Assembly: GCF_048268085.1 (NCBI RefSeq)
Contig: NZ_JBLWWF010000012.1
Span: forward strand, 19,909-83,908
DNA length: 64,000 nucleotides
Source of the DNA: Neptunicella sp.
GTDB taxonomy: Bacteria > Pseudomonadota > Gammaproteobacteria > Enterobacterales > Alteromonadaceae
Direction: 5' to 3'
How positions within the stretch are numbered: position 1 is the stretch's first letter; each line of letters starts with the position of its first letter. Position numbers and translations under genes: made by a program. Below the pieces are notes generated by a model. It made no database searches and was not told the DNA's origin. It saw only the letters and a list, made by a program, of their open reading frames with translations. Below are positions 54,741 to 58,071 of this stretch, piece after piece.

Positions 54741-54943
54741 GGGATAGCCTCTTTATTTTGGCCCGTATCGCAATCCGGCCCGTAGCCAAACACCATACGT
54801 GTTTTACAGTTAACAACCTGCTGGTTGCATTTTTTGGAGGCGGGATTCTAAAGTATGCCACCGCTACAGGCAAGTACTATTTGTGGTTTTAATAACCGAT
54901 TTCAATAAAACATTTATCACGCCAAGGCGCAAAGATCACAGAG

Positions 54944-54987
54944 GGAAAGATAATTCAGCAACGAGTGGCGAGCTTCGAGCGACGAGC
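54944..54987. repeat. left arm of an imperfect inverted repeat bounding the AT-rich island
   Basis: ggaaagataattcagcaacgagtggcgagcttcgagcgacgagc. The 12-mer cgagtggcgagc (54963-54974) is the exact reverse complement of 57936-57947. The whole block is about 70-75% similar to the reverse complement of 57936-57978 by hand alignment. Confidence 0.5.
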
Positions 54988-55190
54988 TAAAGAAAAACAC
55001 ACTGGACCCCGTTCCGGCTCAAAGGATTACCGGTATGACGAAGACTACCGGGGTGACAAATAAAACAACACGTGGGGATAACAGATAAAAATATAATCAC
55101 CACAACAGTCCAAAGAATGGATAAGAAAGGGTGGACTAATCTATTCAATCGGAGTAAAAAGACAACTAATAAAACGGAATTTATTAGAAC

Positions 55191-55895
55191 ATGGATGTAT
55201 TTATTTCAGATTGTTTCTCTCAATTGGTTCAAAATTTAACTTTTTCATTAAGTTGTCGTCAATTATTCCATAAGCTAAACGACATTGTTCAATATTTGGG
55301 GTTTGACTATTATGCATATAGTGTTCATGCGGCTTTTCCTGTAAGTAATCCAAGTTTTGTATTTTATAGTAATTACCCTGATGAATGGAAAAAAAAGTAC
55401 GCAAAGAATAACTACCCTATAGAAGACCCAACGATAATACACGGCCTTAAAACTTCACTTCCTCTCATATGGAGAGCTAATGAGGTAACTAAACAAAAGA
55501 ATTTCTGGGAAAATGCATTTACTCACAAGATTAGGTGTGGATGGACTCAATCTGCCGTACTGAATCCTCATAATACTGCCGTTTTTACTATGGCATGTAA
55601 AAAGCAAATTGATGTTTCACACCAGTTACAATCTCACCTGCTTACTTTGAGCGCTACGTTCCATAATTTATACACTAAAGTGGTGCTTGCTGAAGTGCCA
55701 GATATAAATCTAACAAAAAGAGAAATTGAAATCCTAAAATGGTGTTCTGATGGAAAAACATCCGAAGAGATCGCCATGATACTTAATGTCAAAAAGCGCA
55801 CAATTAGTTTTCATATAGCGAATGCGATAAATAAGCTTAATGTAAATAATAAAACATCTGCTGCTGTTAGAGCCGTTCAATTGAAAATTCCATAA
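55191..55895 (+). CDS. LuxR-family acyl-homoserine-lactone-type receptor/transcription factor (no cognate synthase in the window)
   Basis: Autoinducer-binding pattern YPDEWKKKY......EDP...........LIW....CGW, equivalent to TraR W57, Y61, D70, P71, W85 and G113. C-terminal GerE HTH (LTKREIEILKWCSDGKTSEEIAMILNVKKRTISFHI). Confidence 0.85.
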   Translation: MDVFISDCFSQLVQNLTFSLSCRQLFHKLNDIVQYLGFDYYAYSVHAAFPVSNPSFVFYSNYPDEWKKKYAKNNYPIEDPTIIHGLKTSLPLIWRANEVTKQKNFWENAFTHKIRCGWTQSAVLNPHNTAVFTMACKKQIDVSHQLQSHLLTLSATFHNLYTKVVLAEVPDINLTKREIEILKWCSDGKTSEEIAMILNVKKRTISFHIANAINKLNVNNKTSAAVRAVQLKIP

Positions 55896-56497
55896 AACAT
55901 TCAGCTTTTGAACATAATCTGACCGAGCCGAGATCATAAAATCATCAGTCCGGCTTCAGCTTAAAACACTTAGGCTCATGCTCTTGTTCTGGTGTTTAAG
56001 TTAACCCTCTCATTTATCGTCAATAGTATTTCTGCACATAACCAATGGTTCCCGGCAACTTATTGCCTAGTGTAGGAAAGCTTTGGGTGATAAATAGTTT
56101 AAAAAATTAACCTTCTTAGCATAAATACTTCATTGATCACATCCGGATCAGTTTTTGGATAGCAAGTATTTGAAATATATACAATATTAGGTTCTCATAA
56201 ATAAATTTATATGTTGCAGATGCTTTTGCAGACTTATGACCAGACAGCTGATTTACCCTGTCATTTATGCCAGTTTTTAATCGGCTAGATGTCTGATTTA
56301 ATCTTTCTGACGGGAATTACATGCTCTTTAAATAATCGTTTCAAATCAATGGTGTTATATAAGTTAATGATATTTAACATAAAATATTTTCAGCGTGAGT
56401 TGATTGATTGTGAGTAAAGAGCATTTTGTCTTTAGTCAACATTCTTAATTCATTGAAAGGATAACTGTAATGAAAACTTAAAAAAATATTAAACATA

Positions 56498-56911
56498 TTG
56501 GTTTTATTTTCTCTATTAGGTGCAACTTCAGCATATGCTCAAACAGGTTCTTGGGAAGAGGAAAGGCCTCGTTATACAATTTATGGAAGTGGTGGGTATG
56601 CTGAAACCCTGTTTTATAATTTGCAGACACCAAGAACAGGCATCCACATTACAAATGTAGAATGGAATTGGGTTGGTTATAGCAATGGATTTGATTCGCA
56701 AACAGTGGAAATTTGTTATAGAACACCTAGCGGCTACAATGACGTACTATGTTTTGATATATCAGACCTCCAAACAGGTCAATTAAGCGGCTTTAATGGA
56801 TATGACCCCAGAGGAACAATAGTGCTACGTTATACCCTGGTTGGTGGCACGTATTATGCCTATGGAACTAGTGGAGCTGACGACATAATAACAGTCACTT
56901 ATAGCGATTAA
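56498..56911 (+). CDS. hypothetical secreted beta-rich protein with an ambiguous or disrupted 5' end; possible FlhE-like fold
   Basis: The ORF begins in the middle of a signal peptide (VLFSLLGATSAYA-QTG). A good SD (aaagga) and ATG at 56470 lie one nucleotide out of frame. The mature part is rich in Gly, Tyr and Thr, with 2 Cys. The order of GSW, W.W, C...C, VGG and V.Y resembles FlhE as I remember it (weak). Confidence 0.5.
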   Translation: MVLFSLLGATSAYAQTGSWEEERPRYTIYGSGGYAETLFYNLQTPRTGIHITNVEWNWVGYSNGFDSQTVEICYRTPSGYNDVLCFDISDLQTGQLSGFNGYDPRGTIVLRYTLVGGTYYAYGTSGADDIITVTYSD

Positions 56912-56930
56912 GATAAAATTAGGGGGTAGG

Positions 56931-57704
56931 ATGCTAATAGATACCGACAAAGTTACTATTGATTCAAGAGCCATAGTCTCAAAAGATGTGATTGACAAAG
57001 AGGCGGTCGGAGACTATCAAGTTGAATTATCTGAAATTACACTTAGTCAAACTGGGCAAGACATTAATGATCTTTATCAAAAGGTTTTACAGGTCGCAAA
57101 AGAGCATCCATCCCCTATTTATATATCAGTAGATAAACGCTTTGAGTTGTTGGAAAAGACGGCAAGTATGATCGCTGCGAAATCAGATATTAGTTATACA
57201 TCTGAGCAAATCCATAGGGCTTCACAAGATGTTGGGAAAGAGCTAAATATTACTGAAATTCCCCCCGGAGATATAAGCGCCGGAGGGGGAAATGTATTTT
57301 CTTTTCTAAGCCAAGAAGATAAAACTCGTTTAGGCGAGGCTTATCAACATGCACTGGATAACAACTCCGATCTGAAAGACGTAAACACTGTTGCTTTTAC
57401 TTTAGCTATTGCTAAATTTAGGGAAGAAAAAATTGCTTCTGGGACTATCTACGGAACTTTTAGTAAAGAAGAAAGAGAAAGTCTCTATGAGCTTAACAAT
57501 AAATTAGAAGCTCCTTCTGATGAAATAAAACAATCAGGAAGAGATTTCGTTGAAGTATTGAAAAGCGAGTTAGAGGGGAATGATCTATTTTCTTCAAATC
57601 CTTTTTTAAAAACATTAATTCAACGTGATAGTATTTTTGATATATTAGAAGCAAGAGACCCAGACTACTTTAATAAAAATATCCGTAAAAAGTTTTTCAC
57701 TTAA
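56931..57704 (+). CDS. hypothetical protein (257 aa, acidic, no signal peptide or TM segment)
   Basis: Strong SD (aggggg) 5-6 nt before the ATG, 19 nt after the upstream stop. Coding-like periodicity. No family I recognise. Confidence 0.55.
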   Translation: MLIDTDKVTIDSRAIVSKDVIDKEAVGDYQVELSEITLSQTGQDINDLYQKVLQVAKEHPSPIYISVDKRFELLEKTASMIAAKSDISYTSEQIHRASQDVGKELNITEIPPGDISAGGGNVFSFLSQEDKTRLGEAYQHALDNNSDLKDVNTVAFTLAIAKFREEKIASGTIYGTFSKEERESLYELNNKLEAPSDEIKQSGRDFVEVLKSELEGNDLFSSNPFLKTLIQRDSIFDILEARDPDYFNKNIRKKFFT

Positions 57705-57935
57705 TTTGTAAGCTTTTTTGCTGATTCTGACACAAAAATAGGTTGTTTGAGCAGAGTCGAAAGTGAGCTGTTTTTTTACAGATAATAGAGTACTATTTTT
57801 TCACAGAATACATTAATGGAAAGTTAGTAATATATTTGAGTACTACTTTGTCGTTGTGAATTTTTCGATCGACGAGCTTTAAATTCCTTTCTCCGTGCCC
57901 CTGTGGTCAATAAGCTTTTTCTTTTTTTGCTTTTG

Positions 57936-57978
57936 GCTCGCCACTCGAAGTCCGCTGCTCGCTGCTATTACTATTTCC
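57936..57978. repeat. right arm of the imperfect inverted repeat bounding the AT-rich island
   Basis: gctcgccactcgaagtccgctgctcgctgctattactatttcc. See the left arm at 54944..54987. Confidence 0.5.
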
Positions 57979-58071
57979 TATTCTAATTAAATCGAATACA
58001 TGACCTGACGCGGCAGTTACTTTATAGTAATAAGCCTGTAATGTTAGTTTGCCTCTACTACCTGAGATCCT

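Follow-up and report, generated by a model that had tools for sequence, protein, structure and literature searches.

Introduction

FlhE of the flagellum has been described as a proposed periplasmic chaperone, which would hold exported rod and cap proteins and keep the rod cap stable while the rod grows, and its gene follows flhB and flhA as an operon rule (Halte et al. 2024, PMC11247099). According to the same survey, FlhE-domain proteins of unknown function are scattered over a dozen phyla, most of them encoded away from flagellar operons and some even in genomes that lack flagella; FlhE was concluded to have joined the flagellum recently (PMC11247099). Here we analyse two adjacent genes, gene 1 and gene 2, in a 64,000-nucleotide (nt) stretch of DNA from Neptunicella sp. 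(hereafter the window; all coordinates are positions within it unless another locus is named). It is highly probable that they represent an FlhE-superfamily protein and a dedicated partner, moving together as a mobile module.

Supplementary Dataset 1 of that survey (Nat Commun 15:5921) holds many FlhE-domain entries from Alteromonadaceae whose neighbourhood is given as 'unknown' (PMC11247099). It has zero entries from Glaciecola or Fibrobacter, and no partner gene is named (PMC11247099). Our literature search found no other paper on non-flagellar FlhE-domain proteins.

Results

Gene 1 and the FlhE superfamily

The mature product of gene 1 (after AYA|QTG) has 123 amino acids (aa), an isoelectric point (pI) of 4.3 and two cysteines, in agreement with an earlier note on this DNA, made from the letters alone, which had described a mature secreted product of about 120 aa with a cysteine pair. 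The spacing of that pair is C-x11-C and not C-x12-C, as had been stated there.

The earlier note had also pointed to a loose resemblance to FlhE. The Pfam FlhE model (PF06366) scores the window protein with 14.6 bits (E 0.035) over model positions 23-105 of 106, and it matches six of ten relatives of gene 1 taken from related loci, with a best E of 3.8e-5; the open reading frame (ORF) of gene 1 was not listed in the whole-genome FlhE scan at E<=1. As a reference set of genuine FlhE we used three genes from Enterobacteriaceae-type genomes, each directly 3' of flhA. Profile-profile alignment (hhalign) of the gene 1 family with this set covers 121 columns (79%, E 1.6e-5), running from the signal peptide through the C-terminal strand with both cysteines aligned.

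A template-free AlphaFold2 (AF2) model, computed from a ten-sequence alignment, has eight strands, with a predicted local distance difference test score (pLDDT) of 85.6 and a predicted template modelling score (pTM) of 0.78. When this model was compared by Foldseek with 350,542 PDB chains, the top match was the crystal structure of FlhE, 4QXL (E 2.6e-5; template modelling score, TM, 0.70/0.83; root mean square deviation 2.4 Å), all other chains remaining at TM <=0.55. Judged by profiles and predicted fold, gene 1 belongs to a remote, non-flagellar branch of the FlhE superfamily. Its neighbours are a LuxR solo gene, rpmE and priA, and because it does not follow flhB-flhA, it is not an orthologue of flagellar FlhE. 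No second FlhE-like gene was found in the own genome, in which flagellar genes (FlgM, three FlgO) are present. The resemblance is thus borne out by the fold, the profile-profile alignment and the Pfam matches in relatives, which also support the description of a beta-rich, FlhE-like and probably secreted protein with no flagellar genes nearby.

A further FlhE-domain gene, positive with the Pfam model (42.6 bits), was seen in a genome of the same family (L059 918-3109). It adjoins a resolvase gene and is flanked by genes for two small unnamed proteins with polar N-termini, one of which carries a DTVSIS motif like those of the gene 2 family and of FlgM.

Co-inheritance of the two genes

Gene 2 follows gene 1 on the same strand after 19 nt and is preceded by the strong Shine-Dalgarno (SD) sequence AGGGGG, both as the earlier note had reported; purine-rich GGGRG sites likewise lie 5' of the partner gene in related loci. 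A gene 1-type gene stands directly upstream of a gene 2-type gene in about 13 loci (Table 1) and both proteins have relatives, so the label 'orphan' formerly given to the pair was overstated. The spacing between the small gene and its partner is 9-64 nt, with the exception of L027 (241 nt). The identity matrices of the two proteins, compared over nine pairs, are strongly correlated (Mantel r 0.93; 0/5000 permutations reach it), the small protein being the more conserved of the two. Elsewhere, genes for transposases (Tn3, IS4, IS91), resolvases and integrases are among the neighbours of the pair. Neither 60 relatives nor 300 genomes of the family carry it; no relative was detected by pattern scans of GTDB species genomes with both alignments, and viral contigs yielded none either. 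Adjacency in these loci and one shared evolutionary history support the proposal of the earlier note that the two genes are functional partners, an idea that had been staked on their co-occurrence beyond this genome and that survives, this co-occurrence having been found.

Several arrangements deserve mention in their own right. Tandem duplication of the module is seen in L028 (459-2270), with two adjacent partner-family genes, and on one Tn3-flanked contig, with two complete pairs. In Alteromonas stellipolaris, 71 nt located 3' of the pair (L001 9328-9398) are 76% identical to the 3' end of the small gene of the window and may, from the alignment, be the remnant of a second copy. Genes of the HU type and for a PAS-GGDEF-EAL protein lie near the pair both in A. 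stellipolaris (L001 10049-12966) and on the Glaciecola plasmid (L058 1-718), which suggests a mobile context shared by the A. stellipolaris island and this plasmid. A second apparent combination of a small and a large gene on the same plasmid (Glaag_4387/4388) proved to be unrelated.

The gene 2 family

When 1.84 billion representative proteins were searched exhaustively with a profile, the gene 2 family came to 43 members at E<=1e-3, of which 26 also pass E<=1e-10. No family covering gene 2 exists in Pfam, NCBIfam, PADLOC or PHROGs, which agrees with the earlier view that its product has no recognisable family. A sequence search of the PDB with gene 2 found no match, Pfam gave no above-noise match in 38 family members, and PADLOC defence models returned nothing significant for either protein or for six relatives. 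DUF3243, which matched three long relatives weakly and below threshold, was set aside.

The gene 2 product has a pI of 4.7 and zero cysteines, and it lacks any hydrophobic segment, its Kyte-Doolittle mean over 19 residues peaking at 0.52, as expected from the earlier description of a protein with neither signal peptide nor transmembrane segment. Its AF2 model is all-helical, with 11 helices (pLDDT 84.5, pTM 0.73). Foldseek comparison with the PDB gave a best E of about 1 and TM<0.25, and comparison with BFVD gave nothing above noise; the model thus represents a confident prediction of a fold without match among solved or viral structures.

Residues 1-30 are modelled with a pLDDT of 46-52, and residues 1-38 are probably disordered. 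Throughout the family, the N-terminus is variable and polar and ends in V/I-x-L/I-S (ITLS here). In an alignment of 28 sequences, L126 and G171 are invariant and S39, F125, D130 and R162 nearly so. The core motif can be written as F-L-x3-D-[KR]-x2-L-x2-A-Y-x-[YH]-A-x-[DN]-N ... D-V ... A-F-x-L ... R; longer relatives (310-455 aa) contain it once or twice. Near the C-terminus, most members keep the motif LF-x-x-NP-x-L.

Flagellar genes and toxin-like contexts

Partner-family genes also occur close to flagellar genes. In L024 (2845-5705 and 9091-10287), a solo partner gene lies directly 3' of three tandem genes for FlgO-family lipoproteins, with FlgT near, and in L040 (2-3100) a fragment of a longer partner relative is found between FlgO genes and FlgT. 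The own genome (L045; contig C6 39000-51000) has three tandem FlgO-family genes after glyA, then genes for two secreted proteins of ~215 aa and a chaperone-like gene.

Together with the homology of gene 1 to FlhE, this raises the question of a flagellum-linked module. According to this explanation, the helical protein would be exported via the flagellar type III gate by means of an FlgM-like N-terminus, the FlhE-like protein would receive or restrain it in the periplasm, and the mobile element would thereby modulate flagellar assembly or sigma-28 control. The partner N-termini (ML[IV]N-x-[DE]KL ... V-x-L-S-x-x-[AG]) do resemble those of FlgM (MAININ-L ... DSVSLTQSAQ) in this genome and in its relatives, FlgM and FlgO are present in the host, which lacks an FlhE of its own, and both the 44%-identical partner behind the FlgO trio of L024 and the L040 fragment fit. 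However, the hhalign match of the gene 2 family with 12 FlgM sequences, which pairs the V-x-L-S motif with DSVSLT and includes two helices, is weak (16%, E 1.6e-3), and no family member matches the Pfam FlgM model (PF04316). Moreover, the other pair loci have no flagellar genes beside the pair, the FlgO trio of the own genome is not followed by a partner-family gene, and the contig of one pair carries a neighbour gene >=90% identical to a Fibrobacter sp. protein, the Fibrobacteraceae being without flagella (PMC4704652). We regard a flagellar role of the pair as unlikely.

An effector-immunity pair was also considered, in which the signal-less helical protein would be a delivered toxin acting in the target periplasm and the exported small protein would confer periplasmic immunity. 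The sporadic, mobile distribution and the presence of an export signal on the small protein only are compatible with such a pair, as are the two pairs in tandem on one transposon-flanked contig, the teneurin/RHS/YD-shell genes adjoining the Fibrobacter-like pair and the position of the L026 pair amid short paired ORFs that resemble, by appearance alone, toxin-antitoxin genes. By contrast, conservation in the partner is limited to S39, F125, L126, D130, R162 and G171, with no residues of catalytic type; it does not look like a pore-former, because it is acidic and hydrophilic; and it often occurs without the putative immunity gene, which would here stand first, an unusual order. The own genome, which is 99.98% complete, has no type VI sheath gene (VipB/TssC, PF05943), and PADLOC and Pfam toxin models are silent. 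These observations make a toxin with its immunity protein quite improbable.

A recurrent out-of-frame start

The start of gene 1 had been placed at ATG 56470 by the earlier note. This ATG does not share the reading frame of the gene body (56470-56911 measures 442 nt, not a multiple of three); with its SD, it represents the ancestral start of gene 1, from which the body is now offset by one base. The body frame is open back to the preceding stop, beginning at 56474, and can be reached only via TTG 56498 or via the loss of one A from the A4 run at 56473-56476. One A fewer in this run gives the reading MKLKKILNILVLFSLLGATSAYA|QTG, a textbook signal peptide that corresponds to the in-frame starts of relatives (MKAFKIL.. 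in L001, MRFINKL.. in L023). TTG 56498, the first standard in-frame start, yields MVLFSLLGATSAYA, a leader lacking the charged n-region. Relatives of gene 1 have canonical signal peptides or lipoprotein signal peptides. Since the usual start no longer leads into the body frame, less of the small protein, or none, may be exported in this strain.

Within the clade to which the window belongs, four out of six loci show this situation, an SD-ATG out of frame with an intact mature domain (Table 1), in-frame starts being present in L001, L023, the Fibrobacter-type genes and L033. The offsets come from independent assemblies and vary in position and direction, and three of them lie at a run of A or T. 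Apart from the offset, these genes are unbroken, as are their partner genes. Export may have been lost repeatedly, or the offsets may reflect phase variation, programmed slippage or reinitiation after a short leader ORF.

These data bear on whether the pair is simply decaying cargo, the start of gene 1 having been lost by a 1-nt insertion, its product being not exported or not made, and the pair having no role here. Such decay would agree with an out-of-frame SD-ATG that runs into a stop after three codons, with the foreign base composition of the surrounding islet and its absence from three congeners, and with promoter and terminator signals, for which a scan did no better than on shuffled sequence. 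Nevertheless, neither the 123-codon mature part nor the 257-codon partner contains a stop or a frameshift, the partner retains its strong SD, and a sequencing error in the A run may be an alternative source of the offset. A like 5' offset has arisen independently in three related loci with intact bodies, which argues for tolerated or regulated expression over decay. We give decay a small chance.

The islet between rpmE and priA

The pair resides, with the LuxR solo, in an islet of low guanine-plus-cytosine (GC) content (0.30-0.39, versus 0.44-0.48 in the flanks). The rpmE-priA spacer of a congener (G003) can be aligned with positions 54741-54980 and 57925-58071, the homology stopping near 54980 and resuming near 57925, and a perfect 12-bp inverted repeat flanks the insert (54962-54973 / 57936-57947). 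The rpmE-priA spacing is only 216-243 bp in two congeners (G001 and G002), and a third has a spacer of 1.09 kb with unrelated, repeat-rich filler (window 54741-58071 versus L012 7331-8421); the islet is missing from three congeners. These alignments make the rpmE-priA spacer an apparent hot spot for insertions. Just beyond the islet border, upstream of rpmE, an intact L31-Gammaproteobacteria leader is the sole Rfam match (54747-54799, minus strand, 38.3 bits, E 4.7e-6).

The earlier note had tentatively read the pair as a quorum-responsive secreted factor with its partner, controlled by the adjacent LuxR solo, which indeed lies 575 nt upstream on the same strand and in the same islet. However, tblastn of the LuxR solo against all other pair loci gave no match, and the gene lists of the long contigs contain no Autoind_bind or GerE gene beside the pair. 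Since all other loci of the pair are devoid of a LuxR-type gene near it, the LuxR link is specific to this islet; the LuxR solo shares only the islet with the pair and does not belong to the conserved module. A quorum-responsive module is therefore very unlikely; regulation of the pair by the LuxR solo in this particular strain is possible, though comparison with other loci lends it no support.

Table 1. Positions of the two genes, of features in and around them, and of loci that contain the pair.
Feature	Locus	Position	Strand	Remarks
Gene 1, body ORF	window	56498-56911	+	137 codons, counted from TTG
Gene 1, ancestral SD-ATG	window	56456-56481	+	SD aaagga (56456-56461) and ATG 56470; 3-codon ORF ATG AAA ACT TAA
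Gene 1, signal-peptide-coding part	window	56474-56539	+	body frame; aligned with signal peptides of relatives
Gene 1, mature FlhE-fold domain (predicted) and stop codon	window	56540-56911	+	123 aa, eight-strand beta sandwich, Cys pair C73/C85
Gene 2, SD	window	56921-56926	+	AGGGGG
Gene 2, ORF	window	56931-57704	+	257 codons; unnamed family; acidic product, predicted all-helical
Gene 2, N-terminal low-confidence region	window	56931-57047	+	residues 1-38, up to ITLS motif
Gene 2, conserved core	window	57303-57416	+	F125-R162
Gene 2, C-terminal motif	window	57585-57608	+	LFSSNPFL
Low-GC islet	window	54981-57925	.	about 2.95 kb, borders approximate; LuxR solo and pair
LuxR solo	window	55191-55895	+	Pfam Autoind_bind 4e-24, GerE 1e-19
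SD-ATG out of frame	window	56456-56500		reads MKT*; run A4; shift +1 to body
SD-ATG out of frame	L026	4395-4415		reads MKLKKK*; run A6; shift -1 to body
SD-ATG out of frame	L002	1032-1040		reads MF*; run T4; shift -1 to body
SD-ATG out of frame	L025	662-720		reads MKFIRMLFPSALFALF..., open 94 codons; run not resolved; body in other frame
Pair locus	window
Pair locus	L001			Alteromonas stellipolaris
Pair locus	L002			Logan contig
Pair locus	L017/L018			Fibrobacter-like contig
Pair locus	L019			relative of L017/L018
Pair locus				one contig; two pairs between Tn3 transposase/resolvase genes
Pair loci	L022, L023, L025, L026, L027
Pair locus	L033			same-family genome; partner 449 aa
Pair locus				Glaciecola sp. 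4H-3-7+YE-5, plasmid pGLAAG01, Glaag_4385/4384

Discussion

The explanation that best accounts for the data overall, to which we assign a probability of about 0.5, is a horizontally acquired two-gene cassette coding for an FlhE-like envelope protein and a helical partner. The product of gene 1 has, by its model, the FlhE beta-sandwich fold and would be exported by Sec, being a lipoprotein in some relatives, and gene 2 would be translated from its own strong SD into an acidic, all-helical protein with a disordered N-terminus and no export signal. Both genes are inherited and transferred together, on plasmids, in Tn3/IS-flanked segments and in islands. By analogy with FlhE, the small protein could serve as a binder or guard on the envelope side, its client being the gene 2 product or a complex containing it, in which case the helical protein would have to leave the cytoplasm by a non-Sec route. 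This mechanism, an envelope-located binder with a co-inherited client, is put forward tentatively. The data show the fold, the homology to FlhE, the pairing, the mobility and that no LuxR link is conserved; a physical interaction of the two proteins is what we infer, as we do the location of the gene 2 product and the cellular process served.

Four points weigh against this explanation. The score of the window protein lies below the Pfam FlhE cut-off of 25 bits. About eight loci (L015/16, L020, L021, L024, L028, L038, L039, L041) hold partner-family genes but no small gene, so this family has its own function. In this strain, the start of the signal peptide does not share the frame of the gene body, and the cassette may be partly inactive here. 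Finally, the partner lacks an export signal, so that a client in the cytoplasm might never encounter a binder in the periplasm.

A bolder proposal, which we think has little chance of being correct as a whole, is that the original role of the FlhE superfamily was that of the envelope half of a mobile two-protein module, flagellar FlhE being a later recruit. The partner would have an unseen fold and a Sec-independent exit, and frameshift-prone starts would act as a switch on the export of the small protein, through phase variation or programmed slippage on A/T runs in the first signal-peptide codons. Such a switch would explain why the SD-ATG is out of frame in four of six close relatives with an otherwise intact gene.

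With the cassette described here, non-flagellar FlhE-domain proteins gain a conserved, co-inherited partner gene, and this rare pair offers a route to studying the roles of FlhE-type proteins outside flagella. As the two-gene cassette can be transferred to laboratory strains, experiments on binding, localisation and phenotype become feasible. A solved structure of the partner would add a new family, and the recurrent out-of-frame start, if biological, could reveal a switch controlling export of the small protein.

Comparison with known systems

FlgM is an anti-sigma-28 factor that leaves the cell through the flagellar type III system. It shows a disordered polar N-terminus, a [DS]-x-V-x-[LI]-[ST] motif and helices, to which the gene 2 product has a weak resemblance by hhalign, whereas this product is 2.5 times longer, has an unrelated conserved core and does not match the Pfam FlgM model. 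The non-flagellar FlhE-domain proteins of Halte et al. resemble gene 1 in lying outside flagellar operons and in their sporadic distribution; unlike those entries, the gene 1 subfamily is further from the Pfam model and has a conserved downstream partner.

FlhE itself (PF06366, 4QXL), the periplasmic protein of the enteric flhBAE operon, is likewise a beta sandwich of ~115-125 aa when mature, made behind a Sec signal such as relatives of gene 1 have, and its profile aligns with that of gene 1 over the full length, including the Cys pair and the C-terminal V-x-Y strand. The two differ in that identity is only 19% and gene 1 has a seven-residue insertion between the two cysteines. Gene 1 is also not located 3' of flhB-flhA, and it is mobile and has a dedicated downstream partner gene, which flagellar FlhE does not have. 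Taken as a whole, the locus joins a remote, mobile and newly described form of the FlhE superfamily to a partner of unmatched fold.

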